Origin: a virus
Taxonomy: Duplodnaviria; Heunggongvirae; Uroviricota; Caudoviricetes
Length of the DNA: 49,646 nt
IMG/VR virus record: IMGVR_UViG_2740892231_000005
Strand: one strand, 5' to 3'
Below the pieces are notes generated by a model. That model worked only from the letters and a program-made list of their open reading frames with translations, searched no databases and was not told the DNA's origin. Shown one piece after another: positions 16,435 through 48,950 of the stretch (within the stretch, counting starts at the first letter, position 1; the number at the start of each line of letters is the position of its first letter). Both the position numbers and the translations under genes were made by a program.

Positions 16435-16454
16435 AAAAATACGACCTCTTTATA

Positions 16455-16838
16455 TTATGCAGATGGATTTTGTTGTGCGGTGTTAAGGAATATCCCAACC
16501 TTCCGGCAAGCCAGATATACATCGGCAATCTTTGCTGATTCAGGAAGGATAACCGCATGTGCATTGAACATTCCGGTCAGCCATGCTGTTCCAACTTGCG
16601 CTGAATCAGTCGCATCAATACTGTGTTGAGCGATACAATACGGTTCTTTTGCCACCCCCTCACCAGAGAGATTTATTGGTGCTACAGTGACAACATTTGT
16701 TGTCTGATCAATACTGACAAAAGCAAGCAACTCACCTCGATTTACTTTACCGCTGGCAAGTTTAATACTTGTTGTAATTGCTGGCATACCACCAGAAATA
16801 ATCAGATTATCTGGTTCAAATGAAAAAGACTCTCGCAT
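16455..16838 (-). CDS. Head decoration protein (gpD-like, by synteny)
   Basis: 127 aa between the protease/scaffold gene and the major capsid gene. Confidence 0.55.
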   Translation of the reverse strand: MRESFSFEPDNLIISGGMPAITTSIKLASGKVNRGELLAFVSIDQTTNVVTVAPINLSGEGVAKEPYCIAQHSIDATDSAQVGTAWLTGMFNAHAVILPESAKIADVYLACRKVGIFLNTAQQNPSA

Positions 16839-16847
16839 AAACTCACC

Positions 16848-19479: not shown

Positions 19480-19715
19480 AAATCTCTTATCACCACTCGT
19501 TTAATTCGTGGGCCTCGGCGTATACCTGCTGATAATCTTTCTACTTCATTACGCCAGTAATCCATCTCTTTTCTGACTTCTGATAAATCCGCACGAGTTA
19601 ACTGCCGCGTACCAAATTTATATGACTGACCGCCAATAGCAATAGCGCGATATGCTTCCCGCCAGACAGATAACATCTCTCTGGCTTCAGTCAGAGAAAA
19701 TGCTTCATTGTTCAT
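19476..19715 (-). CDS. Head-tail joining protein, lambda gpW-like
   Basis: 79 aa; pattern resembles lambda W; located between terminase and portal as in lambda. Confidence 0.65.
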   Translation of the reverse strand: MNNEAFSLTEAREMLSVWREAYRAIAIGGQSYKFGTRQLTRADLSEVRKEMDYWRNEVERLSAGIRRGPRIKRVVIRDL

Positions 19716-19726
19716 TTATATTTCCT

Positions 19727-21583
19727 CTATATGGTTACGCCTTTACTTATAACTCTACGGCGTCTTCTACGTATACCTGACGAGTTCTGCACATACACAT
19801 TACCTCGCATTTCCTGTTCGGCAAGCCAGTTAAAATTAGGGTTCAGAATTTCCATCGCGGCAGTTGCATAGTTACGGCAATCAAGAGGCTCGTTACGCTC
19901 GTAGACTTTCACCCACTTTTCTTTTGTCTGCCCATTTTTATATTCAAATATTTTCTTCTCTGATAATAATCCTTTAAAGTATTCGGTATCATATCCTCTG
20001 TCAGAATCTAATGGGAAATGCATATAACCAGGACCAGGATCATGTAGTTTAATTCTTGCCATGATGGTCCCTTTACCATCATCAACCCCCAAATTAAACA
20101 ACATAGCACCCACACGGTTATTATTACTTGGCTTTCCTATAAATGGTAAACCTACCCCACCACGCCCCCTGATAGAGTATATTCGCCTTGATTCTCTCGG
20201 CTTAGTAAAGCGATATACCTCTGTCGTAAAATGCCCACCAGAGTCAATACAAACGGAAGAAATCTGTAATTTTCGACCGTCACGGAATGACCAGCTACGG
20301 AGTAAGTATTCATCAAGTTGTTTCCAGACAACATCTTGTGCGGGATCACCTGGGAATATTTTATATTCTATCCCCCATGACTCCTTACCTTTTCCCCAAC
20401 CGACCAATTCACAAACTAAATACGTGTCCTGTACGTCAACACCAGCACTTAACAATAAAACATCATCTGGTAAAAACTCTTCAAACCTTATTCTGCGTTG
20501 CAACAAGTATTCAGGATCGATATCGTCTTTAGCATCCTCTTTCCATGGCTCACCCAGCTTAAGGTTAATAAACTCCATTAATCCATTTTTATCGCGGTTT
20601 CTGGTTGCTTCCGTAAATTCTTCAACCAGCTCTGACAATGCAACCCACGGGGAGTAAAGACTGTTAATATGAAAACCAACAATACCTTTAACTCCAGTAT
20701 GTTCAGCTATCCATACCCCCTTCGCCAACCAATCAACGTCTGGTTTACCAGATCCGCGCATAATCCCGCCGCACTCACAGCACTCATATCTGGCCGTTTC
20801 CGGTAACGCCTCACCTGAATCGCTCTTATCCCATCTGACTTGCGACCATTTCATCACCTGCATGGTGCCACAACATGGGCAAGGAACATGGTAGTAACGC
20901 TGATCGGAGAGCTTAAACCACTTGTGGATTTTGCTCGTTTCCTCCAAAACAGGAGTAGAAACAAAAACTTTCTTACGATTATGAAAGTTGGTAGTACGCT
21001 GAATACCTAGTTTTAGTGGGTCGCCCTCCTGCGTCACACCGTAACGATCAATCTCATCAGCTAACAGTATTCGAATTGGCCTGGATGCAAGACCTGCTGG
21101 GGAATTAGCACCAACAAGTGCTATATATCCACCAGCGTAATGCTTCATACGTATAGTCGTGCTGGACTTTTTGGCTGCACCGCGCCCCTCTTTCCCTTCA
21201 TGCAGCTTGTGTTTCAAACCAGGGGAATATTTGAACGTCGGATCAATACGCTCTTTTGAAAAAGCCTCAGCCGCCTCTACCGTTGGATAAATCATCAACT
21301 GAGGAGATGGCTCCTGATCTGCAAAGTAACCCATAACATTTAGCTGTAATTCGGATTTACCAATTTGCGAGCTACATTGCATCACTACTGTTTCTGTATC
21401 AGCGTCACCAATAACATCCATTGGTTCACGCAAATATGGCACTCGGCTTGTACGCCACGGCCCTGGCTCTGGAGACGTTCCCGGCGCTACATGACGATAC
21501 TTATCAGCCCATTCGGAAACAGTTAGCCGTGATTTAGGGCGAAGCGCACGGAAAAAAGCGGTGCTCCATACTGTTTCGCCCAT
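19727..21583 (-). CDS. terL: Terminase large subunit, lambda GpA family
   Basis: 618 aa; Cys cluster (CPCCG...CCECG) and overall GpA-like organisation. Confidence 0.9.
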   Translation of the reverse strand: MGETVWSTAFFRALRPKSRLTVSEWADKYRHVAPGTSPEPGPWRTSRVPYLREPMDVIGDADTETVVMQCSSQIGKSELQLNVMGYFADQEPSPQLMIYPTVEAAEAFSKERIDPTFKYSPGLKHKLHEGKEGRGAAKKSSTTIRMKHYAGGYIALVGANSPAGLASRPIRILLADEIDRYGVTQEGDPLKLGIQRTTNFHNRKKVFVSTPVLEETSKIHKWFKLSDQRYYHVPCPCCGTMQVMKWSQVRWDKSDSGEALPETARYECCECGGIMRGSGKPDVDWLAKGVWIAEHTGVKGIVGFHINSLYSPWVALSELVEEFTEATRNRDKNGLMEFINLKLGEPWKEDAKDDIDPEYLLQRRIRFEEFLPDDVLLLSAGVDVQDTYLVCELVGWGKGKESWGIEYKIFPGDPAQDVVWKQLDEYLLRSWSFRDGRKLQISSVCIDSGGHFTTEVYRFTKPRESRRIYSIRGRGGVGLPFIGKPSNNNRVGAMLFNLGVDDGKGTIMARIKLHDPGPGYMHFPLDSDRGYDTEYFKGLLSEKKIFEYKNGQTKEKWVKVYERNEPLDCRNYATAAMEILNPNFNWLAEQEMRGNVYVQNSSGIRRRRRRVISKGVTI

Positions 21584-21588
21584 GAGGT

Positions 21589-22149
21589 TTATTCTTCCTG
21601 CTTAATAAATCGGGATTCCTGGAGCGCCTGAAGCGCAAAATTAATCTCGTCTTCAATAATGCGTTCGATCTCCCTGGCTGTTTTGCCTTCACAACGGGGA
21701 GCTGCTCTTGGAGCAATACTAAATAAGCGGCTACGCAATTCATTAGCTGCCAGAAATGCATCATCCCTGACCGCATCTTTAGCGATGAGAGAGCCTTCCT
21801 TTTCTTCAAATTCAAGGCGTTTCAGCTTTGCCTGATAAATTTTTTCTGCGGTCTTAGCCTTGTTGAATTGCACCGCAACACCGGAAGTACCACCAGCTAA
21901 TCCGGCATCATCAGCGGGTAACTCTGGTTGTTCCGAAGATATCCCATGCCCTCTTTTTCCATTTTCAGCAGATACCTCACGACCAACCTGTCGGCTCGCT
22001 TCATAAGCCGCACTGGCTTTATCAAAATCCAGCTTGCCGCTTTTCAGCACTGGAATGCGACCGGAACGACAGAGCTTCGTAACCATTGCCGGAGAAATAC
22101 CTTTCCGGCGAGCAAACTCTGACTTACTGACGATGGCCATTACTTGCAA
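21589..22149 (-). CDS. Terminase small subunit (Nu1-like, HTH)
   Basis: 186 aa; N-terminal HTH (SKSEFARRKGISPAMVTKLCRSGRIP); immediately upstream of terL. Confidence 0.65.
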   Translation of the reverse strand: MQVMAIVSKSEFARRKGISPAMVTKLCRSGRIPVLKSGKLDFDKASAAYEASRQVGREVSAENGKRGHGISSEQPELPADDAGLAGGTSGVAVQFNKAKTAEKIYQAKLKRLEFEEKEGSLIAKDAVRDDAFLAANELRSRLFSIAPRAAPRCEGKTAREIERIIEDEINFALQALQESRFIKQEE

Positions 22150-22730
22150 CCATTAGCAAGATACTGAACAAATCCCTCATGCGTTTCATGCGCGTCGTGG
22201 TACTGACGATAAACATCCAGCAACAATGCAATTTCCATATCCGTCGCGGGAATACGTTCTTTATCAATAGCCAGGTACTTAATTTGAACAACAGGGGAAG
22301 AATTATCGTCTTCTTCCTGCGGCTGTTCATCGCTTAACATTTCGTCAAGCTCTGCATCATTAAACCCAAGCAGATCAATATCAAAATCATCATCCATTAA
22401 CTCTTTGACTTCTTCGGCCAGAAGCTGCATATCCCAGCCAGCATTTAAGGCCAGCTTGTTATCTGCAATCCTGTAAGCCTTCTTCTGTTTTTCAGAAAGG
22501 TTACTCAACCGAATCGCCGGAACTTTATCCATTTCCAGAATTTCGGCTGCTGCAAGCCGACCATGCCCCGCAATCAGTTCATTCTTTTCATCGATCAGCA
22601 CAGGATTAGTGAAACCGAACTCACGGATACTGTTCACCAACTGTTCAACCTGCTCATCTGAATGAGTCCGTGAATTTTTGGCGTATCTGAGCAGCTTACC
22701 GACTGGTAAATATTCGATTTTTAGAGCCAT
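22140..22730 (-). CDS. ParB-like nuclease-domain protein (ParB/Srx fold)
   Basis: 196 aa; ParB N-domain motifs (LIAGHGRLAAA, KKAYRIADNKLALNAGW); paralogue of 25397..26020. Confidence 0.75.
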   Translation of the reverse strand: MALKIEYLPVGKLLRYAKNSRTHSDEQVEQLVNSIREFGFTNPVLIDEKNELIAGHGRLAAAEILEMDKVPAIRLSNLSEKQKKAYRIADNKLALNAGWDMQLLAEEVKELMDDDFDIDLLGFNDAELDEMLSDEQPQEEDDNSSPVVQIKYLAIDKERIPATDMEIALLLDVYRQYHDAHETHEGFVQYLANGCK

Positions 22731-23287
22731 TTTTTAACCGCCATAACACAACAGGTTAAAGAAAACTGTTTAACTTATTGATACTAAAAGAGAAAAATGA
22801 CGATCTTTTTACTCATAAAAAATCACACAAACCAGCATAATCATCTGATTTTATTAAGTTTTTATAAGTAAAAAGGATCTTGAGATGGTGTTTTGGTTAA
22901 AAGATTGGATGTATTTGCATGATTTATAACGATTTTTATCAGAACAACATCACATTGGTTAAAGATCTGCGCGTATCTTGATGATCTAAAAGAAAATTTT
23001 CTACTTTCTTTTTACCAGCACAAATACAGCAAAAAATCACGTTTTCCCGATATTTTTCAATGAGATGAGTAAATTTCTTTTACCGCAACTTTTAACCTAA
23101 CTTTTTTCACGTTTAGCTAGCCGAACATCGGGGTTCGAATGACCCGCATCCAACGCTTTTGGCCAGAAGGACCCAATTCTGCCGGACGATGAAACGATGC
23201 TCGTGCTCCCCCACAGACAGCCAGCGAGCGACGCTACAGAACACAGTGAATACACTCTGCATAACAACACCATCAACCACACGATGA

Positions 23288-24007
23288 TTAACGAGAGAAG
23301 GTCTTAGAAAGAATGTCATCAATAGCCTTTGTGACTTCATCAGCAAACGCATCCTCACCAGCACGCAGCGCCACGCCATGCCAATCAAGACGCTGCGAAT
23401 AGTTAGGTTGCTGGATAAACGTAAGGATCAACGTAGGACGCCGCCCAACGCGCTGCCAGACGCCTGGTTGAAGCGGGTTACTTGTACCAGGTCGAACAAC
23501 AAAAAACTCCGTAGGCTTGCCCTGACGGCGATTTTGATGCGCATCTCGCTGAACTCTTAGGCCAGATAAGACCTGCTGTAATTGCCCCCGCGAAATATTC
23601 CCGTATTTATCCAGCTTTGCGCCGGGACCAGGAGCAAGCTGCCAGCCGTTAGGCAAATATCCACCAGCCCTTAGCGCCCCTTCTGAGCGTTTGTACTGTC
23701 GTTGGCCACCTTCGATTTGCGGAGTCAACGTTACAGGGGCTGGCGTTCCTCCCCATTCACGAGCATACACAATGGCTGTAGGATCACTCTTCTTTGCGGC
23801 CAAAACGTAAGTAGAGTTCTGAATCCACGGCGTGGGCCTGTCAAATACCCGATTAATTTCATTCTTAATCGCAGCCTGAGAAGCCTTTGCCGTTCTGGTT
23901 GCCGCAAGCGCCATTGCGAACGGCAATTCGCGTTCTTCAAGGCGCTGGAGTTGTCGTTGAATATCCTGAGAAGAAAAATCCATCTTTATCTCAATTCTGT
24001 CAGCCAC
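23288..24007 (-). CDS. Hypothetical protein
   Basis: 239-aa ORF embedded in the ParB-like cluster; no recognisable domain. Confidence 0.45.
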   Translation of the reverse strand: MADRIEIKMDFSSQDIQRQLQRLEERELPFAMALAATRTAKASQAAIKNEINRVFDRPTPWIQNSTYVLAAKKSDPTAIVYAREWGGTPAPVTLTPQIEGGQRQYKRSEGALRAGGYLPNGWQLAPGPGAKLDKYGNISRGQLQQVLSGLRVQRDAHQNRRQGKPTEFFVVRPGTSNPLQPGVWQRVGRRPTLILTFIQQPNYSQRLDWHGVALRAGEDAFADEVTKAIDDILSKTFSR

Positions 24008-24023
24008 CAGCGCCTCCTACACA

Positions 24024-25403
24024 CTACTTAATCAACGGCCGGAAAGCCGCCAGCACATCATCAGATCGTCCGATTGTTGAACCACCAGGCAACGGCAACT
24101 CAAACTCAAAACGAACAGCTTTCTCCAGACTCGCCCAACTAAGGGAATCATCGTTAATGACGTGCAAATACCAGCTCTTACAGTTGAATATTGACCGCTT
24201 AATCCTGAAACCATGTACACGACACAACTGCTTCACTTCATCATCAGAATGAAACTTCTGGTAAAACCAGTGCCCCTTCCGGTACAACGCGGTAAAACCG
24301 TTATGATCAATAAAATAAAGCCGGCTTTTGGAACTCGCCGCTTGTGTTTGCTTCAGGACTGTTTCCAGCTCTCCACGGCTACGGCCAGAAAAGAATATTG
24401 ACCCACCAGCTTTACACAGGCCTTTCAGAACCGTCAGAACGGACCATTCAGCCTCGACACTATCGACCGAGTTCAAAACGCTATCGCAAATCACGTAGTC
24501 GTAACGCCCTCGCGTTTTTAAGTCGTCCACCAGCGTATCAATCATTCGGTTTGTTGCAGCCCTATCCAGAGTGTTTCCAGCGCCCTTACGGCGGAAAAGC
24601 TCGAGATCATGCAGGTTATATCCCTTTGCCCTGAGCATTCGCGCGTAGTCTCCCTGCCCCGAACCAAAATCAATTCCTCTTGGCGTCTTGGCAATAATCG
24701 GGAGGATCAACGACTCATACAGATTTGATTTCAGGCTGCCACCATTACGCAACCGCATAAGCTGCGCATACGTCTGGATGTATGTTGTTTTCTCCAGATG
24801 AGAATACTCAAATACACCATAAGTTTTATTCAGATAACTTTGGTATTTTTCCTTCTCAACATCAGGGATCACAAACACCGTTAGCGGTGTGCGCGTCATT
24901 TTCGCTGCTAATGCATACTGAGCACAGTGAATAACCTCACCAGACTGAGTAGCAACACAACCACCCCACGGACCATACTTGATAACCAGTTCCGCTATGT
25001 TCTTTCGAACATATGCCATTTTCGCGCGCATATTGCCTGAGATCTGGCTTGCCGATACCTGAACAAAACCATGCTTATCTTCCAGACCGGACACCCTGCA
25101 ACGCTCATCTCCGCTATCAAAATCCGTTCCGTTATGCAGTTGGTTAAACCGTACTTCGTCGTATACCGTCGTTTCACAGGGCAACACATACACCGCAGCA
25201 CGCGTTATTCCCAATTTACGTAGCGCCTTCGTCCTTTGGTGTCCCGCCACCAGCAAATCGCCGCGCACTATCAATGGCTTCACAAGCCCCAGCTCCCTGA
25301 CGCTTTCCGCCAGCCTCGCAAGATCATCCTCACCGATAAAACGCGGGTTATATTCCGCGCCGCGTAGGTGCGTTATGTCGTAATTGAGGTGAAGCATCAG
25401 CAC
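24024..25403 (-). CDS. ParB-like N-terminal domain fused to a class I SAM-dependent methyltransferase domain
   Basis: 459 aa; N-terminus LVAGHQRTKALRKLG (ParB-like); C-terminal half with GIDFGSGQGDYARML (motif I) and DYVICDSVLNSV; no DPPY/NPPY motif seen. Confidence 0.7.
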   Translation of the reverse strand: MLMLHLNYDITHLRGAEYNPRFIGEDDLARLAESVRELGLVKPLIVRGDLLVAGHQRTKALRKLGITRAAVYVLPCETTVYDEVRFNQLHNGTDFDSGDERCRVSGLEDKHGFVQVSASQISGNMRAKMAYVRKNIAELVIKYGPWGGCVATQSGEVIHCAQYALAAKMTRTPLTVFVIPDVEKEKYQSYLNKTYGVFEYSHLEKTTYIQTYAQLMRLRNGGSLKSNLYESLILPIIAKTPRGIDFGSGQGDYARMLRAKGYNLHDLELFRRKGAGNTLDRAATNRMIDTLVDDLKTRGRYDYVICDSVLNSVDSVEAEWSVLTVLKGLCKAGGSIFFSGRSRGELETVLKQTQAASSKSRLYFIDHNGFTALYRKGHWFYQKFHSDDEVKQLCRVHGFRIKRSIFNCKSWYLHVINDDSLSWASLEKAVRFEFELPLPGGSTIGRSDDVLAAFRPLIK

Positions 25404-26020
25404 ACCTCCCCAGCCAGCAATGCGGATACAAATCCGATATAGCTGCCATTATCATCAACATAACGAGACACCGCGCAGTCAAAACGATCCGCTTCCTCAT
25501 CCGTTGCCGGGATTTTATGACCTCCAAATGACAGGTACTGAACTTTTACGCCTGATTTGGCCTCATCCTTCTCAAATGGGATATCCATACCTTCTGTGTC
25601 ATCGTAGACCGCCACACTCAATAAGTTATCCAGTTCGCGCTGAGTAAAACCAATTGAGTCCAGAGCAAAATCATCGGCCGCAAGATCTGCAAGCTCCGCG
25701 CTTAACAACTCTTCATCCCAACCAGCATTCAGCGGAATACGGTTGTCGGCCAGACGATATGCCTTCTTCTGATTCTCCGTTAGCCCAGCCAGAACAATGC
25801 AGGGAACATCATCCATCCCCAACTGAGTGGCCGCAGCAATTCGACCATGACCAGCAATTACAACGTTGTTCTCGTCTATCAGGATCGGATTAGTCCATCC
25901 GTACTCCTGTATGCTGGCAACAATCTGATCTACCTGCTCCACGGAGTGTGTGCGAGCGTTCTTTTCATAACCAATCAACACAGAAAGTGGTAAAGAAACC
26001 ACATTAAGTTGTTTTGTCAT
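25397..26020 (-). CDS. ParB-like nuclease-domain protein, paralogue 2
   Basis: 207 aa; VIAGHGRIAAA, KKAYRLADNRIPLNAGW; about 50 percent identical by eye to the 22140..22730 product. Confidence 0.75.
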   Translation of the reverse strand: MTKQLNVVSLPLSVLIGYEKNARTHSVEQVDQIVASIQEYGWTNPILIDENNVVIAGHGRIAAATQLGMDDVPCIVLAGLTENQKKAYRLADNRIPLNAGWDEELLSAELADLAADDFALDSIGFTQRELDNLLSVAVYDDTEGMDIPFEKDEAKSGVKVQYLSFGGHKIPATDEEADRFDCAVSRYVDDNGSYIGFVSALLAGEVC

Positions 26021-31255: not shown

Positions 31256-31763
31256 TTCATAAAGCAACAAATTACGCGGTAATCGCTTAACGCAGTTTTA
31301 CTACGTTAAATGAAACACTACACCCAGTTACCACCTAAAACAAGGTTTTTCCATAAAAAAAACCTTCATATCGTGGTTAATCGATCAATAAAAAAGCAAT
31401 GTTCAACTTTTTACCAACCGAACATCCCGACCTGGACTTCCATAATATTCGCCGATATGCCACTGCTTAAGTTGAGTAATCTTCTCCAACTTAACTCCCA
31501 TAGAGTCCAGTTTCTGCCATGTTTTCGGTTGTATGTGCTTCATTACCCGCTCTGAATATCTGAATACTGCTCGTAAGCGCATGGTTTCTCACTACAGCTT
31601 ATATAAGTGGTTTTTCCAGCGGTTTTGCGCCGCGCTGCGCTTCTCTTTTACTCCCTCTCTGGCAATTCCAGAAAATGAGAACAACACCACACGGCGATTG
31701 CTAACTCTCAACCACTGGCTGGGATAGCAAAGTCTGTATACACGGGAGATAAGCATCTTAGCT

Positions 31764-36888: not shown

Positions 36889-37400
36889 TGATGGCCCCCG
36901 TCATTTCTGGTGCTTTTCACCGTGCGGCTGCTTAAAAACCTGCCATCACGAGAAACAGACACATCTCGTTTACCCAACCTCATTTCACGGCGGTAACATT
37001 CAGAAAATGCCTCGTCCGGCAGCATATAAATGCGACGCTTCGCCTCCGTATCCAGAAGAGAACGGCTTGGGGTTACATATAAAAACGACTCATCAATAGG
37101 GACAAAACCACGAGCAAGAATTGCTGGAAGAATGCCTGGAAGAACGCAGAAAACAGCTCCACGATGCAGCAACATCTGGTACTCCATGACCTCCGTTATC
37201 CCCGTGACGACTGTTACGGTGTCACGTCTGTTACGGCTGGCAACCAGCCGCTGCACACGTCCAATTTTCTGCTCTACAGATAGACGTTTACTATCGTTAT
37301 CAATATGATCGATAACAAATCCTTTAATCGTTTGATCAAGGTAGTGCACCACCTGCGATTGAATCTGGTGATTATCACCAAAGAAGGCCAGAATCATCAT
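36885..37400 (-). CDS. Hypothetical protein (nin-region-like)
   Basis: 171-aa ORF. Confidence 0.4.
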   Translation of the reverse strand: MMILAFFGDNHQIQSQVVHYLDQTIKGFVIDHIDNDSKRLSVEQKIGRVQRLVASRNRRDTVTVVTGITEVMEYQMLLHRGAVFCVLPGILPAILARGFVPIDESFLYVTPSRSLLDTEAKRRIYMLPDEAFSECYRREMRLGKRDVSVSRDGRFLSSRTVKSTRNDGGHQ

Positions 37401-37891
37401 TCCTCAAGCCTCCCAAGTGCTGAACGCCGGGCGTTGCTAATCTCCTTATGAATCAGCTCGATATCGCTGGAATCTTTATTCTTAAACTCCAGCACGGCAA
37501 TCGCATCACGAACCTCTGAAACGGTTACGTGTGAGTGTTTCCAGCGAGCAATGAATCGCGGACCGCGTAGATTGCAACGCTCCGCAGGCATCCCCAGCTC
37601 AGAGAAAACCGCTTTCAGCCTTGATAAGCAGTTAACAGGGAGATTCCCTTTGATCTTGTTCTGCCGAACCGATGTGCCATCGCTACGCTGGCGCTGACGT
37701 TCGGCAAAATCTGCCGCCCATTGCTGGACGTTAATCCGGCCTTCTGAATACGCCACCAGCAGCGTCAGGTTATCCGCACGAGGGAATCTCTCGAAGCGAT
37801 ACCAGGCACCAATCAGTGATGACGTAAAGCCAAACTTTCTGGCAACACCAATTTGGCCTCCATTTTCGTCAACCCACTCCTGAAAGGTCAT
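37397..37891 (-). CDS. Cro/YdaS-like HTH protein, divergent from the repressor gene
   Basis: 164 aa; N-terminal DENGGQIGVARKFGFTSSLIGAWY resembles Cro/YdaS-type HTH; start abuts the operator cluster. Confidence 0.5.
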   Translation of the reverse strand: MTFQEWVDENGGQIGVARKFGFTSSLIGAWYRFERFPRADNLTLLVAYSEGRINVQQWAADFAERQRQRSDGTSVRQNKIKGNLPVNCLSRLKAVFSELGMPAERCNLRGPRFIARWKHSHVTVSEVRDAIAVLEFKNKDSSDIELIHKEISNARRSALGRLEE

Positions 37892-37909
37892 TTAACGAAC
37901 TCCAGTTAA

Positions 37910-38027
37910 ACCACGATATGTGGTATTAAACCCACATATCGTGAGTTTTTCAATGGGCGAAACAAAAAATAACCTTCTATTTGTGGTCCACCTCTCGTCT
38001 TACCATGTGAAAACCACTAAATGTGGT
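37910..38027. promoter_or_regulatory. Immunity operator cluster: palindromes ACCAC-N5-GTGGT at 37910..37924 and 38013..38027, partial sites at 37933..37943 and 37983..37991
   Basis: Seen in sequence between the divergent cro-like and cI-like starts. Confidence 0.65.
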
Positions 38028-38064
38028 AATGTATAAATAACCCACCATTCACGATTGATGAGAC

Positions 38065-38721
38065 ATGAAAAGCAACGACGAGAACATCAAGAAAGAAATA
38101 GGTCTGCGCATTCAGACTCTACGGAAACAATCCGGCATGACTGCCGGAGATCTCCAGCAAGTCACTGGAATAGGCTTAAGCACCTTGCAGAACTATGAGG
38201 CCGGATTAAGACAACCATCTATACCTGCCATCAAGAAAATCGCGCACGCCCTGAAAGCATCAGCGCCTTATATCGCGTGCTTAACAGATAACCCGTTCCC
38301 ACCCCAGAATACTAACGCTCCTGTTATTCCTGGGCTTGTAGCTATAAAAAATGACATAGCATCGCACGCCGGAGAAAAGCCAGTGCTGGCGATAGAACAG
38401 GAGATTCTACGAAGCAAGAACATCAACCCATCGTCTCTGTCAGTTCTCCAGAGCAACGATGAGTTAATGTCACCAACAATATCCCCTGGCTCCCAAGTCC
38501 TGATTAATACAGACGATACAGAGATTCATGAGGGGATCTATGCCCTTGAAGACAGAAATGGCCTGGTTGTTTTGAGGCACTGTAGAGTCATACCGGGTGA
38601 CAATGCTGTTATGCTGTCAACCGAAAGGGATGCTGAAATGAACACTAAGCATCTGAATAATGAGGAATTTAAGCGTTATAAAGTTCTTGGCCGCGTAGTT
38701 AGTGTTGTCAACTGGTTATGA
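38065..38721 (+). CDS. cI: CI-like repressor (N-terminal XRE HTH, C-terminal S24/LexA-like domain)
   Basis: 218 aa; HTH (LRKQSGMTAGDLQQVTGIGLSTLQNYEAG); C-terminal domain with S24-like features. Confidence 0.8.
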   Translation: MKSNDENIKKEIGLRIQTLRKQSGMTAGDLQQVTGIGLSTLQNYEAGLRQPSIPAIKKIAHALKASAPYIACLTDNPFPPQNTNAPVIPGLVAIKNDIASHAGEKPVLAIEQEILRSKNINPSSLSVLQSNDELMSPTISPGSQVLINTDDTEIHEGIYALEDRNGLVVLRHCRVIPGDNAVMLSTERDAEMNTKHLNNEEFKRYKVLGRVVSVVNWL

Positions 38722-38813
38722 TACACAGCACGGCGGAAGCCGTGCATTTCTACGCTCAAAAAAACCACATTTTGTGGTTTTGACAACATGTAAAAGTATA
38801 AAAGAGGCTACGC

Positions 38814-39188
38814 ATGGAATTACATACAGCCAATAAAAACGAAACTCTGATCACTGCTGGAATCGAAATCCAAGCGTTGAACATAGCGATTGAGTGTATG
38901 TTATGCCAAATCATTGATAATGAGAAAGATATCGACTGGATAGAATCTATCCTTCATCTGGCATCAGAACAAAAAATCTGCCTCAAAACGGCCTTACAAT
39001 ACGATGTGCCAGCGGTATCGAAGCTGTGCCAACCATTGATGGCATATAACAGAGCTATTATTTCTGTATGCCTCATGATTCTCGATGAAAACACCCCTCT
39101 TAGCGACCGCTCAGAAGCTGCTCTAACCCTCTCACGTAAACAGCGACAGCTAGCAAATCAACTGATATCAACGATAGCTGACCTCTGA
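38814..39188 (+). CDS. Hypothetical protein co-oriented with and downstream of the repressor gene
   Basis: 124-aa ORF; AT-rich by eye; followed by a hairpin. Confidence 0.5.
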   Translation: MELHTANKNETLITAGIEIQALNIAIECMLCQIIDNEKDIDWIESILHLASEQKICLKTALQYDVPAVSKLCQPLMAYNRAIISVCLMILDENTPLSDRSEAALTLSRKQRQLANQLISTIADL

Positions 39189-39192
39189 CTGC

Positions 39193-39212
39193 AAGCGGGC
39201 TAACGCCCGCTT
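39193..39212 (+). terminator. Hairpin (aagcgggc-taac-gcccgctt) closing the repressor operon
   Basis: 8-bp GC stem; weak U-tract. Confidence 0.45.
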
Positions 39213-39320
39213 ATATGATTATAGATTTATATAATTATATAAAACGCTTTTCATCCGCCAAAAAGTTGGTTATGCTTACCTCGTTCTATAAATATAGATT
39301 TATAGAATTATATAATCAAA
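39213..39320. repeat. AT-rich iteron cluster (tatgattatagatttatataattatataa ... tataaatatagatttatagaattatataat) upstream of parA; candidate centromere or operator
   Basis: Contains exact TATAATTATA (39230..39239) and the repeated unit ATAGATTTATA. Confidence 0.55.
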
Positions 39321-39338
39321 CACATGGAGTCTCGACAA

Positions 39339-39992
39339 ATGACTATCTCTGTAGGTATTTTCAACGGAAAAGGCGGCGTAACCAAATCAACAATTGCCCG
39401 TGCTTTAGCAGTTGCTTATGCAAAGGCTGGCTGGAATGTATGCCTGATCGATATGGATGTGCTTAACGGAACGGTAACGCGTTGGGTACAACGCAGAATG
39501 GCCAACAATATCGAACCAGCAATCGCGGCGCAGCCGTGCGGCACACCATCACAAGTCCAGAAAATCATCGAATCAGAAGTATACGACTTGGTTATCGTCG
39601 ATGGCGGTGCCTACGCATCTGAATCAGTACCGAAGCTCTCTGAATTTCTGGATATGGTTATTTTGCCAACCAGATTCTCTACCGATGACCTGGAAACCAC
39701 CGTTAACACAGCTCACGGCATCGTTAAAAAGGGTGTACCAATCAAGAAAATTTGCATGGTGTTTTCCGGCGCGGCTGAAAACGAAGCTGACTATATTGAA
39801 GCCCAAGAGTACCTGGCTAATACGCCATACTTTGTTGTCGATAAGTACATTCCCCACAAGCCAGCTCTGAGCAAAGCTCAGGATAAGGGCTTAAGCCTCA
39901 TTGAGTGCTCATACGTTGCGCCACGCAAAAAGGCAGACGACGTTATTCAGGGGATTATCAACCAGCTTGAGGCTCTGACTACTGCCGCGTAA
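39339..39992 (+). CDS. parA: ParA-family partition ATPase
   Basis: Deviant Walker A GKGGVTKST; start chosen at the second ATG with GGAG RBS (ORF track gives 39324). Confidence 0.8.
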   Translation: MTISVGIFNGKGGVTKSTIARALAVAYAKAGWNVCLIDMDVLNGTVTRWVQRRMANNIEPAIAAQPCGTPSQVQKIIESEVYDLVIVDGGAYASESVPKLSEFLDMVILPTRFSTDDLETTVNTAHGIVKKGVPIKKICMVFSGAAENEADYIEAQEYLANTPYFVVDKYIPHKPALSKAQDKGLSLIECSYVAPRKKADDVIQGIINQLEALTTAA

Positions 39993-40020
39993 TATATAAT
40001 TATAGTTTTATAGATTTATA
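39985..40020. repeat. Second iteron block (aatatataattatagttttatagatttatataa) between parA and the RHH gene
   Basis: Exact TATAATTATA at 39995..40004. Confidence 0.5.
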
Positions 40021-40035
40021 TAAGAGGGGATGCAC

Positions 40036-40284
40036 ATGGCCGCACCATCAAAACCACCAAAGAAGAACAGCAAAGGCGTACCGCCATCGATCGAACAACC
40101 GCAGGTTTTCGACCCGACTGAAACGCCAACCAGAACCAAATCAGGTGGGGCACAAATGGCGTTTAACGTCGACCCTGAATTTAAACGCGAGTACAAAACG
40201 TTCGCCAGCTCAATGGATATGTCATTGAAAGAAGTGCTGACAAAATCTTTTGAGTTACTCAAGGCTCAATACAACCAGAAGTAA
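40036..40284 (+). CDS. ParG-like ribbon-helix-helix centromere-binding protein (type Ib partition)
   Basis: About 82 aa; disordered basic N-tail then RHH-like C-terminus (MAFNVDPEFKREYKTFASSMDMSLKEVLTKSFELL); directly after parA. Confidence 0.55.
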   Translation: MAAPSKPPKKNSKGVPPSIEQPQVFDPTETPTRTKSGGAQMAFNVDPEFKREYKTFASSMDMSLKEVLTKSFELLKAQYNQK

Positions 40285-40313
40285 GAGAAGGTGACGGCCT
40301 CCAGCGCCAACTG

Positions 40314-40496
40314 TTGGCCGTCGCGACACAACAAGGGGAATTTGTTATGTCCGAGCAACAATATACACGGTTACTGAAAACTCGTCTAACCGACCTCAAA
40401 CGGCTGCAAGCTGGTCGCTTATTTGCCCTGCTATCCACCAGGCCAGAATGGGTACGTGAAGCAGTTCTGAAAGGCTTAATGCGCTCCAGCGTTTAA
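40314..40496 (+). CDS. Hypothetical small protein
   Basis: 60-aa ORF downstream of the partition genes. Confidence 0.3.
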   Translation: MAVATQQGEFVMSEQQYTRLLKTRLTDLKRLQAGRLFALLSTRPEWVREAVLKGLMRSSV

Positions 40497-40506
40497 ATTC
40501 AACCAT

Positions 40507-40528
40507 AAAAAAGGCCCCCGAAGGGGCC
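40507..40528 (-). terminator. Intrinsic terminator hairpin (ggccccc-gaa-ggggcc) with U-run on the minus strand; possibly bidirectional
   Basis: A6 run on the plus strand 40507..40512 immediately 5' of the stem. Confidence 0.55.
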
Positions 40529-40537
40529 TAATCGCTA

Positions 40538-40660
40538 CTTGCTGCTAATGTTTATCGTCACATTCAGAGCGTTATCAGTAATCTTCCAACCCTCCCCATG
40601 TGGCGTAAACAAAGCTCCAGTAACAACGATAAAAATACACATACAGTATTTTTTCATTGT
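40538..40660 (-). CDS. Small ORF (40 aa, MKKYCMCIFIVVTGALFTPHGEGWKITDNALNVTINISSK) with signal-peptide-like N-terminus
   Basis: Hand-translated; AAGGG RBS 6 nt upstream; terminator directly downstream. Confidence 0.3.
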
Positions 40661-41054
40661 ATGGCCCTTACAGGCCGTTTCACGGCATCCCCACCGACGA
40701 AAACAACGCGAGAGCAAGCACGGCTGCTTGTGCTTGCATGTACGGCAACGGAGAATCCTCCCCTAAAGTCGGTGCCCGGGTGCGAATCGGCGGGAAGGTC
40801 CACAGGTATTTTACGATTATTTTAAGATTAGTAATAGGAAAGAAATTAAACGAAAAAACTCGTTTATTTTCACAAAATCAGTAACCTACCCACAATCTGT
40901 GAGTTTGCAGGCACAACAAGAACCACAATTTTTTGAAGCATAATAGTGGACTATTATTACCTTTTGGGTAAAATTAACTTGCTGCTTGTGCTTGCGTGGT
41001 TGTTTATACAACAACGTAATGCTGAAAGGACCGCGAATCCGATCAGCACGAAAG

Positions 41055-41082
41055 AACCGTCCTCAAAAGGACGGTTTTTTTG
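41055..41082 (+). terminator. Intrinsic terminator (aaccgtcct-caaa-aggacggtt followed by T7)
   Basis: Seen in sequence; overlaps the stop codon of the convergent 41063..41635 gene. Confidence 0.6.
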
Positions 41083-41635
41083 TTTCTCCCCCTTCCTTCC
41101 CAAATGATTCAAATGTTAATGAGAGAGAATCATTTGATATGTTCGATTTAGCGCCGTTATCGACCCAATTTCTGTATGCTTCATCACAACAGTACCTTAC
41201 GGCAGTTGGAATAACAGGAGAGCCGCCCAGAAATGAAAATCCCATTGAGCTTATGCTAATTCTTTCGAATGGCCTATTTCTCAATGCTTCAAATCCCTTG
41301 CTGTTGAAGTAACTCAGCATCAGAGGTAAAAGGTTATCCTCGTCTTGACTGATTGTTCCCGGGAAAAAGTAGTAACCATGGCGATTAAATTCGGGAATCA
41401 GTTTTTCTACCAACAACATGAAATTCATTGGGGTAATATTAAGGGCAGAGCAAGCACCAAAAAGAGCATCAACCGTTAATACAGACTGTCCGTTCTCTAT
41501 CTTTGTCCATGCGTTTGGTGTTTTTCCAGCAGCTTGAGCCAGCACTCCTTGATGCACACCTCTTTCTAGCCTAAGTTCTTTTATGATCATTAGGTGGATT
41601 GTTGAAAAACATGAGTTTTTTGACGTTTCAGTCAT
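41063..41635 (-). CDS. XRE-family HTH regulator with about 130-aa C-terminal domain of unknown function
   Basis: Start at MTETSKN; HTH (LRLERGVHQGVLAQAAGKTPNAWTKIENGQ). Confidence 0.55.
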   Translation of the reverse strand: MTETSKNSCFSTIHLMIIKELRLERGVHQGVLAQAAGKTPNAWTKIENGQSVLTVDALFGACSALNITPMNFMLLVEKLIPEFNRHGYYFFPGTISQDEDNLLPLMLSYFNSKGFEALRNRPFERISISSMGFSFLGGSPVIPTAVRYCCDEAYRNWVDNGAKSNISNDSLSLTFESFGKEGGETKKPSF

Positions 41636-41772
41636 TTTTTTATCCCCATATTGAATTTTTTCCTTGTTCCCAACTTTAACAAAACACCACAACTCAGGAT
41701 TGAGTCATTCCCTACAGGAACTATACATTCCCGTCTTTGGTATATCAAGAAAATTAAAAGCTCGGCATTCAA

Positions 41773-41789
41773 ACCCACACTATGTGGTT
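41773..41789. promoter_or_regulatory. Additional CI-type operator (cccac-actat-gtggt) in the divergent region between the XRE gene and the antirepressor operon
   Basis: Same ACCAC-N5-GTGGT palindrome as in the immunity region. Confidence 0.55.
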
Positions 41790-42081
41790 TAGTCTGTTAA
41801 AATCCGCCGTATTGACATGAATGCGTCATTGGTGGACACTTTCCGAGCCGTAGCAAAATCTACGGTCGGGATTGGCGTCCCGATTGCACAATGGCGCATA
41901 CCGCGTTAGCGGTTTTTTTATGCGTAAAGCACTGCTACACCCAAATTATGGTGGGGCGTGCGGGGGCGGAGAAATCCGCGCCGGGTTTGTCATTGTGCCG
42001 GTTACGCCAACCCTGTACGTCTCACCACCATATTGATTGGCGTCATTGGTGGTGATAGTTCCTTTAATCGGAGATATCACA

Positions 42082-42273
42082 ATGACAAACCTACCCCATG
42101 ACTATTACGTCAACCTCGTAAAGATCCTTCTCAAGAAAGCCTCATACGCCGATAAATTCCGCCTGGCTGAAATCATCGAGCGCGAAGCTATGCGCATCGC
42201 CAGCAACGATAACGCTGTTTCTGACGCAAAAATCTCCCTCGTAACCAAAGTTGTTATGGGAGGTGCAAAATGA
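42082..42273 (+). CDS. Small protein upstream of, and translationally coupled to, the antirepressor gene (icd-like position)
   Basis: 63 aa from MTNLPHDYY with GGAGA RBS; its stop overlaps the ant start (ATGA). Confidence 0.45.
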   Translation: MTNLPHDYYVNLVKILLKKASYADKFRLAEIIEREAMRIASNDNAVSDAKISLVTKVVMGGAK

Positions 42274-43421
42274 AAACGCTTCCGACCGTTAACACCCTAC
42301 AGCCTATCCTGCATAATCAGATTCCAGTAATCACAACTGAGCTACTCGCCCGCCTTTATGGAACAGAAGCAATCCGTATACAGCAAAATCACCATGAAAA
42401 TAAAACTCGGTTCATTGAGGGGAAGCACTTCTTTAAAGCTGTTGGTGATGAACTCAAAAATTTGCGACTAGTTTTAAACGAGTCACAAAATGAGGTGCAA
42501 ATTTCCCCCAAAACTCGCTCTCTCATCCTCTGGACAGAACGCGGGGCTGCACGTCACGCCAAAATGCTTGAAACTAACCAAGCGTGGGATGTGTTCGAAC
42601 GGCTGGAAGACTGCTATTTCAACCAGAACGCGCAAACGGCCGCGACCGTAACCGTCTCGCCAAACAATGCTCGTGAGGTTGTCGATACGCTCAACGCCAA
42701 ACCGATGTTTTACATTAAGGTGTGCAACAACGAGCCACTCACAACCTCAGCCGATGTTGCCCAGGCATTCAGCACCACAAACAATTCCATCGTTATGGCC
42801 ATCGATGCGTTACGCATTCCTCGCACAGCTGCGGCACGTCATTTCTTTAAAGAGCAACGACCGCTGGAAGGAAGCGACCGCGAAATAACAATCTATCGCA
42901 TGACAAAAGACGGATTTACCTTGCTCATGGAAAGTATCGACGGTCCAGGCGTGAAAGATATCAAGCTGGCCTACATTGAAGCCTTTAACGCTATCAGCAG
43001 CGTGTTAAAAACACAGTACGAGCGTGATCTGGCTAAACGACTGTACCAGGAAAAAACGATTATCCGCGCGGCAACAGAGCATAATCGGCTATTAACGGAA
43101 CCGAACTACAGGAAGGAACTAATCAAGGAGTTTGACAAGGCAACAGGGAAAACCAAAGCGGCGCTAAATCTGCCAGCAATGACTCAGGAAAATGTGATAT
43201 CAGCCTTACTTCTTGATCTGCTCAGAAACGCCAGAGCACTTATCAGCTTTGACGAAAACCTGAATCCTCAGCTCAAGCTACTACCACCGACAGGCAAAGT
43301 AGTCGACCAAGCTGATCACAACAGCATACTCAGCGTTCTGGATGCAAACCTGCCAGCCAGGACACTACAGGATCTGATAAAAACATGTGCTGATAAGCTG
43401 GCACAGAAAAGCAGACCATAA
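42270..43421 (+). CDS. Antirepressor-like protein (ORF6N/Rha-type N-terminal domains)
   Basis: 383 aa; two N-terminal segments resembling ORF6N/Rha-type antirepressor domains (PVITTELLARLYGTEAIRIQQNHHENKTRFIEGKHFF). Confidence 0.7.
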   Translation: MKTLPTVNTLQPILHNQIPVITTELLARLYGTEAIRIQQNHHENKTRFIEGKHFFKAVGDELKNLRLVLNESQNEVQISPKTRSLILWTERGAARHAKMLETNQAWDVFERLEDCYFNQNAQTAATVTVSPNNAREVVDTLNAKPMFYIKVCNNEPLTTSADVAQAFSTTNNSIVMAIDALRIPRTAAARHFFKEQRPLEGSDREITIYRMTKDGFTLLMESIDGPGVKDIKLAYIEAFNAISSVLKTQYERDLAKRLYQEKTIIRAATEHNRLLTEPNYRKELIKEFDKATGKTKAALNLPAMTQENVISALLLDLLRNARALISFDENLNPQLKLLPPTGKVVDQADHNSILSVLDANLPARTLQDLIKTCADKLAQKSRP

Positions 43422-43425
43422 CTAC

Positions 43426-43455
43426 AAGGGGCTACGGCCCCTTACTCTTTTCTCT
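43426..43455 (+). terminator. Intrinsic terminator after the antirepressor gene
   Basis: aaggggc-tacg-gcccctt followed by a T-rich tract. Confidence 0.6.
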
Positions 43456-44157
43456 CTTATCAACACCAGAGACTTTCTGAAAATCCTTTCGAATAGCGTC
43501 AGCGTCACGCGCCAAGCCCATACTGGAACGTGTCGCCATATGACGAAAATGATCAACTGCCGGAAACAAAGAAATAATGGACCCAATAGCTTGCAGCAAA
43601 CTCGCTTTTCTACGCATCATAATTCCACCATAACCGATAACCACCCTTCAGACACAACCCCCCCTCCCCCCATACAGGGTGCCCTTTACCGGAGTTCCGG
43701 CCCCTTCTCAAAAGCATCAAAAAAAGCTCGAGATAGAGTACCGGAACTCATGCCACCAGATAGCTCCACATCGTTTCCAATGCTTCGCCGCCGTGTGCGC
43801 CCTGTGGCCCACAATCATGCCATTGGTCGTCTGATATACCTTCTTCTGCTCATAGAGCACAGGCGAGTTGTCGCACTCCTGCCTTTCTCAGACTCGACTT
43901 AGTTTAGATCGCTGTTCCTGGCTTGCGTCAGCACACTTTCCCCTTGTACGCATACCCGCGCGCCACTTCGCCCAAAAACACCGAACCCAACGAAGTGGCA
44001 AAGACAACGACGCGAGCGTGAGTCTGAAATGGGCACCAGTAAAAAAGGGGTTGCAGGCGCAAAAAGATTTGATTATCTTTAGACGCAAGAAAGCCGCCCC
44101 AATCAAGAGGTGTCTTTTTAAATCCAGCCTACCAAGCAAGATTTAAATTTCAGACTG

Positions 44158-47786: not shown

Positions 47787-48779
47787 TTAATGTTGGAGTG
47801 ATTTCCAGGTCTTTCTTAGCCTGTTATAACGCTGCTCAACGAGGGAGCGTAAATATGCAAGGTCAGCACCAGGATACATGCCATCAGCAAATTCCTGGCT
47901 AACCTCTCTAGTGATTTGATGGCGAAGTTCGGCCTCTCCCTTTTCCTGAACAAGACGCGCAGCTCTCTCCGCTGCTTTCTGTTTTGCCTTTATCTCTCTG
48001 GCCGTCTTCCTCTGACGCCATACATTCTCCATCTGCTCCTGAATAACAATACGCTTATAATCAGCCTCCGTTATCGCTTTTTTAAGCCGTTCGCTATTCT
48101 TCGCATTGAAGTAATTAAGTTTCTGGCTAACCGCACGTCTCCATGCTTGTTCAGTAATACCAACTGTTTCCAGCAGTTGATCACGAATCTCGATTTTCGC
48201 TGGCCAATACTGTTTATTCACCCGATCCCAGCGACGTTCATAATCAATAAAACCTAACTCTTTCAGTTGCGACAACGCCCTTGTACAGCGCGTTATAGAC
48301 TTGTTCCCAGCTTCGGATACGGTAGACAGGCCGCAAAAATCAGCCAACGCCTCAGCACTGGCCAGAACCCGCTTAGAAATGATGTTTACATGGTGCAAAA
48401 TCGCAGCAATCACAGCATTAATCGCCCGACGACGATGCTCGTTTATCCGGCGTTTCCGCTCTGACGGTTGATTAACGTAGAACGCAACCTCACACGTAAG
48501 ATCACGACCATTAATGCGCTGTAAAGCATCAGATAACACCAGCGGCAGCTTGTGCGTATGGTGCTTTGGAGGCTGGAACTCCGGCGACAAATTACAAACG
48601 TAAGCTGAACGTAGAGACGGCATTGGTCTATCCATATGTTCGCTCTTGCGTCCACGGAAAACCAACGTATAATGGGAGTTGTCGAGGCGCCCATGGTTAG
48701 TTGTTGGTTTTCCTTTCCGTGGATGTCGCAAGAAGCCCGCAGATTTATCTGCGGGCTTTTTGTTTCCATATCTGGTCAC
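47787..48779 (-). CDS. repA: Plasmid replication initiator, IncFII RepA1-like
   Basis: 330 aa; SITRCTRALSQLKELGFIDYERRWD resembles the recalled RepA1 segment SITRATRALTFLSELGLITYQTEYD. Confidence 0.75.
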   Translation of the reverse strand: MTRYGNKKPADKSAGFLRHPRKGKPTTNHGRLDNSHYTLVFRGRKSEHMDRPMPSLRSAYVCNLSPEFQPPKHHTHKLPLVLSDALQRINGRDLTCEVAFYVNQPSERKRRINEHRRRAINAVIAAILHHVNIISKRVLASAEALADFCGLSTVSEAGNKSITRCTRALSQLKELGFIDYERRWDRVNKQYWPAKIEIRDQLLETVGITEQAWRRAVSQKLNYFNAKNSERLKKAITEADYKRIVIQEQMENVWRQRKTAREIKAKQKAAERAARLVQEKGEAELRHQITREVSQEFADGMYPGADLAYLRSLVEQRYNRLRKTWKSLQH

Positions 48780-48950
48780 TTTTCAACCAGACACCCACAA
48801 TCATAACCACGTTACGTGGTTTTAAGAGAACTCTACCACAACACTTTCGGTCATGCACGAAGTCTCTCACTGATCGAACGATAATCCACCAGTAAAAGGA
48901 TCTAAATTGGATCTCGTTTTGCGAGCATCATACTACTGGCCTAACTCCAG

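Follow-up and report, generated by a model that had tools for sequence, protein, structure and literature searches.

A predicted CI operator family in a roughly 49-kb phage-plasmid and its accessory member upstream of an RNA-guarded antirepressor operon

The intergenic region at positions 37892..38064 of the window (the whole 49,646-nucleotide stretch of viral DNA analysed here) separates a cI-like gene from a divergent cro-like gene and carries palindromic sites of the form ACCAC-N5-GTGGT, and a similar sequence lies ahead of an antirepressor operon elsewhere in the window. This raises the question of whether the repressor of the switch also acts directly on the expression of the antirepressor. 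In the present work we have examined the distribution of the operator motif in the window, its conservation in related elements and its position relative to the promoters and RNAs of the antirepressor operon. The features on which the analysis rests are collected in Table 1.

Table 1. Genes, promoters, RNAs and predicted operators of the window considered in this work (matrix, score by the 25-nt weight matrix).
Feature	Coordinates	Strand	Sequence	Basis or context
cro-like early gene, 164 aa	37397..37891	-		phrog_7452, full length; first gene of leftward early operon
O1	37910..37924		ACCACGATATGTGGT	exact match; matrix 26.6; kept in all relatives
Leftward early promoter (PR-like), inferred	37925..37953	-		-35 TTGAAA 37953..37948, 17-nt spacer, -10 TTTAAT 37930..37925
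O2	37931..37945		CCCACATATCGTGAG	degenerate copy; matrix 22.3
Hybrid half-palindromic element CCTTC-N5-GTGGT	37973..37987		CCTTCTATTTGTGGT	core invariant in relatives 60-66% identical in CI
O3	38013..38027		ACCACTAAATGTGGT	exact match; matrix 25.4; conserved; 38 nt upstream of cI start codon
CI-like repressor, 218 aa	38065..38721	+		Pfam HTH_3 4.5e-11; phrog_4 transcriptional repressor
Post-cI operator	38764..38778		ACCACATTTTGTGGT	exact match; matrix 33.7 (top score); in every relative
XRE protein, 190 aa	41063..41635	-		HTH_3 and an uncharacterised C-terminal domain
ant operator in question (predicted)	41774..41788		CCCACACTATGTGGT	one mismatch; matrix 26.8
Putative upstream promoter, extended -10 TGtTAAAAT	41795..41803	+		inferred from sequence; TG 41795..41796, TAAAAT 41798..41803; invariant in E. 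coli-type loci
isrK promoter	41812..41840	+		-35 TTGACA 41812..41817, 17 nt, -10 GACACT 41835..41840; invariant in all lineages
IsrK-type sRNA with own terminator	41847..41919	+		Rfam RF01394, 67.3 bits (gathering score 50)
C4-type antisense RNA	41944..42032	+		Rfam RF01695, 72.3 bits (gathering score 45)
Small ORF (orf63), 63 aa	42082..42273	+		phrog_7886; ATGA overlap with ant at 42270..42273
Antirepressor Ant, ORF6N and pRha domains	42270..43421	+		Pfam; PHROG anti-repressor families
IncFII-type RepA	47787..48620	-		NCBIfam NF040977, 233 bits (cut-off 70)
repA operator	48806..48820		ACCACGTTACGTGGT	exact match; matrix 32.6

The element and its relatives

The presence in the window of tail, capsid and lysis genes together with genes for a ParA-type partition ATPase and an IncFII-type RepA identifies it as a roughly 49-kb phage-plasmid. 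Three Yersinia phages with circular records of about 49 kb (viz. vB_YpM_41, 44 and 39) are 95-96% identical to the window with a 7-kb query (37000..44000), and near-identical genomes are on record as Yersinia pestis phage isolates. With a 5-kb query (37300..42300), non-mobilizable plasmids of ~48 kb from E. coli, E. albertii and E. fergusonii (including that of ATCC 25922, of 48,488 bp) and one plasmid from Klebsiella aerogenes gave identities of 94-99%; for a Salmonella relative at greater distance, the figure for this region was about 75%. The family of ~48-kb phage-plasmids occurs in 72 of 5,426 complete E. coli genomes (roughly 1.3%) as well as in Salmonella, Citrobacter, Klebsiella and Yokenella, and our search of the literature found no description of its immunity circuit. 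Two candidate affiliations were rejected, viz. that of the window to the pSLy3 family (pSLy3 belongs to the SSU5 supergroup) and that to Yersinia phage HQ103, an unrelated 32-kb phage.

Relatives for the comparative work were gathered by a search for proteins homologous to CI, followed by retrieval of the contigs that encode them. Those in which CI is 60-66% identical to that of the window comprise Salmonella pAR-0407-1, C. freundii, C. amalonaticus, K. aerogenes, Yokenella and a second Salmonella lineage. More remote is the Serratia plasmid pJSRIV006_2 (L008), a siphovirus-tailed phage-plasmid whose CI is only 35% identical to that of the window and whose operators have diverged to TAACC[A/T]C-N5-G[A/T]GGTTA; in its interval 14832..24024, the repA, ant, parA, cI, cro backbone has the same order as in the window. 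The regulatory backbone is common to different virion modules in these two elements.

The cI-cro switch and its operator family

The domain matches in Table 1 bear out the divergent cI-like and cro-like genes described in the initial annotation, and also the XRE gene and the antirepressor that it had named as the other flanking genes. The C-terminal domain of CI is a degenerate S24-like domain (Peptidase_S24, 18.4 bits, under the 23.3 cut-off), in which Leu and Arg align with the catalytic Ser and Lys of LexA and lambda CI. The self-cleaving S24 domain with a Ser/Lys dyad that characterizes lambda-type repressors was not recognized in it, a provisional result at an alignment identity of 16-17%. 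Control of ant by LexA was rejected, a LexA box being absent near the operon, and this absence, together with that of the dyad in the alignment, fits induction through an antirepressor. Judged from these sequence comparisons, the CI repressor is probably non-cleavable and induced in that way. A search for a close CI relative of solved structure found none, the best PDB match (E=2e-4) covering the HTH only. The cro-like gene adjoins cI in all relatives, and the N-terminus of its product looks by eye like a Cro/YdaS-type HTH; the protein has no match in Pfam or NCBIfam.

The four palindromic or half-palindromic sites that had been placed between the two genes are likewise found there, viz. two exact copies of the motif (O1 and O3), one degenerate copy (O2) and one hybrid. 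The inferred PR-like promoter of the cro-like gene matches the consensus at 10/12 positions, and both of its hexamers are conserved in the alignment of relatives; our consensus promoter scan passed over it, its -10 being without A at position 2. O1 adjoins this -10 and covers the probable start site, and O2, at a distance of 21 bp centre to centre that is constant in all relatives, fills the promoter spacer exactly. Because O1 and O2 sit exactly on this promoter, the motif is read as the operator of the switch. The geometry of the region (O1 and O2 21 bp apart, O3 adjoining cI) is retained in the relatives with only 60-66% identity in CI, and the OR, post-cI and rep sites are all kept in these relatives from Salmonella, Citrobacter, Klebsiella and Yokenella. 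The region has the organization of a lambda-type switch, in which divergent cI and cro genes are accompanied by several operators overlapping the lytic promoter. For cI and orf124, no promoter could be convincingly assigned from the sequence. O1 and O2 are in addition mirror images of each other including their spacers (37912..37943, with the 12-bp arms CACGATATGTGG and CCACATATCGTG), a symmetry that is probably incidental because the relatives do not retain it in their spacers.

The hybrid element joins one consensus operator half-site to a different half. Exactly two copies per plasmid are present in the window and in 5/5 scanned relatives of the same operator type, one of them in OR and the other (31363..31377 in the window) upstream of the holin/lysis genes, and no match was found in the scanned Serratia plasmid. 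This element may serve a second regulator, or it may, as an asymmetric site for CI/Cro, tie the switch to the late genes.

A scan of the whole window for ACCAC-N5-GTGGT, the check that the initial annotation had asked for, found 4 exact copies in 49.6 kb against 0.02 expected from shuffles. Two of these are O1 and O3 in the intergenic region; the other two, located just after cI and upstream of repA, had been overlooked. For degenerate copies, a 25-nt weight matrix was derived from the window and its relatives, with their OR, post-cI and rep sites as the training set and the ant site left out. The highest scores in the window belong, in descending order, to the post-cI, repA, ant, O1, O3 and O2 sites (Table 1), followed by a score of 19.7 at 25998 and a next best of 12.4. 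The ant site ranks third by this measure, above both exact OR sites, and its score was reached by 0/200 Markov-random 49.6-kb sequences. The initial annotation had reported an operator of the same type at 41773..41789; its membership in the family stands on this rank and on the random sequences, but the match is not exact, the site reading CCCAC...GTGGT and departing from ACCAC-N5-GTGGT by one mismatch. The CCCAC half-site variant is also present in undoubted OR sites of relatives. By its matrix score, the ant site is a statistical member of the same predicted operator family as the OR sites, and AAACCAC-N5-GTGGTTT would be the sequence that the CI-like repressor recognizes.

Two further observations were made in these scans. 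At 25977..26012 there are two adjacent near-matches to the operator, AACACAGAAAGTGGT and ACCACATTAAGTTGT (score 19.7), which fall in coding sequence at the very start of a ParB/Srx-like gene (25397..26020, - strand); relatives keep only the first, AACACAGAAAGTGGT. A weak operator-like sequence, CCCACAATCTGTGAG (40889..40903, score 8.7), resembles O2 and is located ~90 nt from the 5' end of ryfA.

The post-cI operator, which is the best-scoring site in every relative, is located between the conserved cI terminator and the RBS of orf124, a gene followed by that for ParA and then by a ParG-like gene. The product of the latter (84 aa, 40030..40284) is a ParG-like ribbon-helix-helix protein on our own reading of its sequence, and Pfam has no family for it. 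The repA operator is kept in all relatives whose contig extends to repA; it is found directly upstream of a TATGAT -10 (- strand) and 186 nt upstream of repA. The position of this predicted operator is that of the switch-repressor operators at the rep promoter in N15-type elements. On the opposite strand, 48650..48765 (+) contains a long hairpin and a strong terminator antisense to the repA leader, which are highly conserved in relatives and resemble the CopA-type countertranscript of IncFII replicons; comparison of the repA leader with Rfam gave sub-threshold hairpin matches only.

The antirepressor operon and the conservation of its upstream site

Downstream of the ant site, the operon consists in order of isrK, a C4 antisense RNA, a small ORF and the antirepressor gene. 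The isrK promoter puts +1 at about 41847, which is the start of the Rfam isrK model, and the Rfam match stands at the head of a small-ORF/antirepressor operon, as is characteristic of the IsrK family. The C4-family RNA lies upstream of the antirepressor in the same operon, an arrangement also seen at the ant operon of relatives, and the small ORF is coupled to ant and preceded by sequence complementary to C4, viz. TTGGCGTCATTGGTGG at 42037..42052, which is complementary to ACGCCAA and CCACCA in C4. The sequence GCGTCATTGGTGG is repeated at 41823..41835 and 42040..42052. Its second copy, which directly precedes the orf63 RBS, belongs to the C4 target; its first copy lies inside the spacer of the isrK promoter and is therefore transcribable from an upstream promoter only. 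The antirepressor operon is immI-like and RNA-guarded, and it is related to isrK-orf45-anrP of Gifsy-1 and to c4-icd-ant of P1. Repression of ant by CI had been put forward in the initial annotation as a second immunity layer; that layer is primarily the IsrK/C4 RNA system, of which the annotation made no mention.

The ant site occupies -73..-59 relative to the isrK start (centre ~-66) and ends 23 nt upstream of the -35, and therefore it would not occlude the isrK promoter. Repression would in consequence require a second promoter farther upstream, for which the extended -10 TGtTAAAAT is a candidate. This motif ends 8 nt before the isrK -35, has no recognizable -35 of its own, differs in sequence between the E. 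coli-type lineage and the second lineage described below, and was not picked up by the consensus scan; the ant site would cover its -35 and spacer region. Of the immI arrangement in which an operator lies on the first of two tandem promoters, the operon has a conserved site of the operator family, and an upstream promoter represented by the TGnTAnnnT motif only.

Comparison of the left-hand flank of the ant site in different elements allows its ownership to be assigned. In the E. coli-type lineage, the site is kept in about 25 loci (plasmids, phages, IMG/VR and metagenomes), and the block always reads AAACCCAC[A/G]CTATGTGGT, then TGtTAAAAT, then TTGACA. To the left of it, three contexts are found. 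The first is the XRE cassette of the window; in the second (ATCC 25922), the same XRE gene is separated from the site by another segment; in the third (L004, L006 and many metagenome loci), there is no XRE gene and a + strand terminator abuts the site. A recombination breakpoint is located immediately left of AAACCCAC. The persistence of the site with the XRE cassette, with another segment, or without XRE indicates that it belongs to the ant side and not to the XRE gene, and the latter was rejected as its owner. What had seemed a second XRE variant was also rejected: the protein is the same (84% identity), and it is the intervening segment that differs. The XRE cassette is optional: plasmids that are near-identical in other respects may have it or lack it at its place between terminator and ant operator. 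Within the E. coli-type block, 0/10 half-site columns vary in comparison to 6/22 neighbouring columns (one-sided p=0.08), which is only suggestive of selection on the half-sites and not significant alone.

A second lineage (C. amalonaticus, Yokenella and one Salmonella lineage) has the counterpart site ACCACAATGYGTGAT, in which ACCACAATG[C/T]GTGAT stands 24 nt before TTGACA, the distance in the E. coli type being 23-24 nt. A site of this score has a chance expectation of about 1e-4 per 60 bp. In this lineage, a NinX cassette or a ryfA module takes the place of the XRE gene, and the sequence between site and promoter is unrelated to that of the E. coli type apart from TGgTAGATT, which is two nt further from the site than TGtTAAAAT; the TGnTAnnnT motif is thus found 7-9 nt after the site in both lineages. 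In a third lineage (Salmonella Concord pAR-0407-1, C. freundii and one metagenome contig), the ant operon is without the site. The operators of its members at OR and post-cI, and those at rep in contigs that extend so far, are of the same type; their small ORF runs up to TTGACA, and the ryfA/terminator module is absent. The ant site is found only in lineages with this module, and so it could have come with it. The absence of the site from relatives of the same operator type (L002, L009 and L028) indicates that this control is dispensable and an accessory feature. The ryfA-family RNA itself (Rfam, 142 bits; 40507..40803, - strand) is located between the partition genes and the ant operon, with a + strand terminator to its right at about 41056..41082; RNAs of this family are mRNAs of the type I toxin timP (PMC7667032).

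Scans with TTGACATNAATGCGNCATTGGTGGACAC gave 7 viral-contig loci and 13 metagenome-contig loci, all in elements of the same immunity, and no match in genome contigs. No heteroimmune relative with an ant site was found in the viral, metagenome and genome contigs scanned, and the Serratia relative, with its diverged operator specificity, has no site at its ant operon. Taken on its sequence and distribution, the predicted ant operator is a real, conserved and lineage-specific accessory operator.

A proposed CI regulon and its counterparts in other phages

The best explanation of these results, which we hold with moderate confidence, is that a single CI regulon covers the switch, post-cI, repA and ant sites, and that the ant site is comparable to Oc4 of P1. 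Such a regulon would comprise three symmetric sites and one hybrid between cI and cro, one site between the cI terminator and the orf124-parA-parG operon, one on the repA promoter of the IncFII-type replicon and, in this lineage, one somewhat weaker site before the isrK-C4-orf63-ant operon. The last would work like P1 Oc4 (Op51) by overlapping the upstream promoter TGtTAAAAT, which would stand in tandem with a constitutive isrK promoter. With CI bound there in a lysogen, the presumed upstream promoter would be shut and the isrK promoter would stay on, IsrK and C4 RNAs holding antirepressor translation off. Once some Ant was made, CI would be inactivated and the upstream promoter would open, yielding more ant mRNA. 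Since induction of CI is probably through the antirepressor, repression of ant by CI would close a self-reinforcing, double-negative loop between Ant and CI that commits the element to lytic growth. Direct repression of antirepressor expression by CI is on this analysis plausible.

A variant of this scheme, which we consider quite unlikely, is that the CI-controlled upstream promoter switches the operon to a leader isoform containing a cis decoy that unlocks ant translation. Only transcripts started upstream would contain the first GCGTCATTGGTGG repeat, which resembles the C4/IsrK target before orf63; upon loss of CI, this long leader would act as a cis decoy for the antisense lock, and RNA polymerase at the upstream promoter would occlude the overlapping isrK promoter. 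Folding of the short and long leader isoforms showed no clear switch in terminator or RBS accessibility. If the decoy reading were true, transcriptional derepression would be converted into translational unlocking of the antirepressor, and lysogeny, plasmid copy number and the antagonist of the repressor would all be coordinated by one non-cleavable repressor.

The position of the ant site also bears on an unlikely but more serious alternative, that CI binds there for a purpose other than repression of ant. The site could, as an auxiliary operator, take part in long-range looping to the OR and post-cI operators over 3-3.9 kb, in the manner of lambda OL/OR; it could, as a roadblock, shield the ant operon from transcription arriving from upstream; or it could serve activation, keeping the isrK/C4 promoter on in lysogens. 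The centre at ~-66 without overlap of the conserved promoter is in keeping with such roles, as are the constant location of the site just downstream of a + strand terminator, at an insulation point, the weak -10 of isrK (GACACT) and the activity of the Gifsy-1 isrK promoter in lysogens (PMC4825925). A single imperfect site would, however, be a weak looping partner, and the P1 precedent is one of repression of an upstream promoter. In both lineages, the site is directly followed by a TGnTAnnnT motif. The classical class I activator positions are moreover out of phase with a centre at -66.

Two remaining alternatives concern whether the site is a CI operator at all, and we regard both as very unlikely, to a similar degree. 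It could be used by the 190-aa XRE protein, in autoregulation of a divergent promoter, or by the Cro-like protein, instead of by CI: it lies in the divergent region adjoining the XRE gene, a - strand promoter-like sequence (TTGATA-17-TATAGT) is located 26 nt to its left, and Cro-type proteins of lambda-type switches usually use the operators of CI as well. Against ownership by XRE, the site is unchanged in plasmids that lack the gene, where it fits the consensus of their OR, post-cI and rep sites, and it is retained in the second lineage, where the gene is replaced; use by Cro would be compatible with binding of CI. Alternatively the site could be non-functional, a chance near-match or a weak hairpin or terminator remnant carried with the ryfA/terminator module, as its mismatch, its flagging as a weak terminator-like hairpin, its absence from one lineage and its correlation with the inserted module would allow. 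What speaks against this is the matrix score never attained in random sequence, the low chance expectation of the second-lineage site, and the retention of half-sites and position while the 23-24 nt up to the promoter diverged completely; the stem has only 5 bp, and a strong terminator is already present upstream.

The preferred scheme of a CI-controlled upstream promoter has its closest counterpart in immI of P1. In the annotated P1 record, the C1 operator Oc4 (former Op51, 48140..48156) overlaps the -35 of P2c4 (former P51a), P1c4 (P51b) follows 11 nt after the P2c4 -10, and then come a1/b1, the c4 RNA, a2/b2, icd, and ant1 overlapping icd by 4 nt. The P1 antirepressor is under double control, with C1 repressing transcription of the c4-icd-ant operon and C4 antisense RNA, which acts on translation, also required for the block (PMC8198154). 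The window resembles P1 in being a phage-plasmid and resembles immI in the order of its parts, viz. a predicted operator for the primary repressor that would lie on the first of two tandem promoters (this first promoter being putative in the window), a C4-family RNA, C4-complementary repeats and a small ORF overlapping ant by 4 nt; its GCGTCATTGGTGG repeats are comparable to the a1/b1 and a2/b2 sites. It differs from P1 in its lambda-type HTH_3/S24-like repressor with a symmetric 15-bp site, whereas P1 C1 has asymmetric 17-bp operators; in an IsrK-type sRNA ahead of C4; and in the position of the first target-like repeat, which is in the spacer of the downstream promoter and in P1 is downstream of both promoters. 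Homology to the P1 Icd and Ant1/2 proteins was not found (orf63 gave no BLASTP alignment with Icd, and Ant matched Ant1 at E=4.7), and the ant operon, as far as its sequence indicates, works like immI without protein-level homology to Icd/Ant1.

The CB repressor of N15 binds three OR operators and two at the repA promoter, by which it also governs plasmid replication, and the icd and ant genes of N15 form an anti-immunity locus of their own, in which N15 is like the window (PMC4488713). N15 and phiKO2 share with the window a lambda-like cI/cro switch with three operators and operators for the same repressor at the repA promoter. N15 is a linear plasmid with its own RepA, whereas the window has an IncFII-type replicon with a countertranscript-like hairpin. 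In the literature, we found no description of a CB operator at the N15 ant operon; N15 AntC, which we take to be under LexA control, contrasts in this respect with the antirepressor of the window, which has no LexA box. In Gifsy-1, an IsrK-family sRNA likewise heads a small-ORF and antirepressor-like operon, isrK-orf45-anrP, the promoter of which is on in lysogens with AnrP translation blocked until IsrK in trans unlocks it, and no repressor operator upstream of isrK is described (PMC4825925). DNA similarity of the window to Gifsy and Stx phages begins only at 41864, downstream of the promoter and operator. With lambda, the window shares divergent cI/cro genes, a pair of neighbouring operators on the lytic promoter at a distance of two helical turns, a third operator adjoining cI and a further operator downstream of cI; it differs in a repressor that is probably not self-cleaving, in the extra operators at the rep and ant promoters, and in the extra hybrid element in OR and at the lysis operon.

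The wiring proposed here is already known from phages P1 and N15, and it contains no new principle and no surprise to the specialist. The element appears to combine a P1 immI-like function with an N15-style control of repA, built from different parts. That a P1-style layout, viz. an antirepressor operon guarded by C4 RNA and with a repressor operator on its upstream promoter, can be built from a lambda-type repressor and proteins without homology to those of P1 argues for selection on the design more than on the parts. With the operator consensus and the six or seven positions at which it occurs, a concrete regulon map is available for a common family of phage-plasmids, and this map shows how one repressor may link the lytic genes, plasmid replication and the antirepressor.
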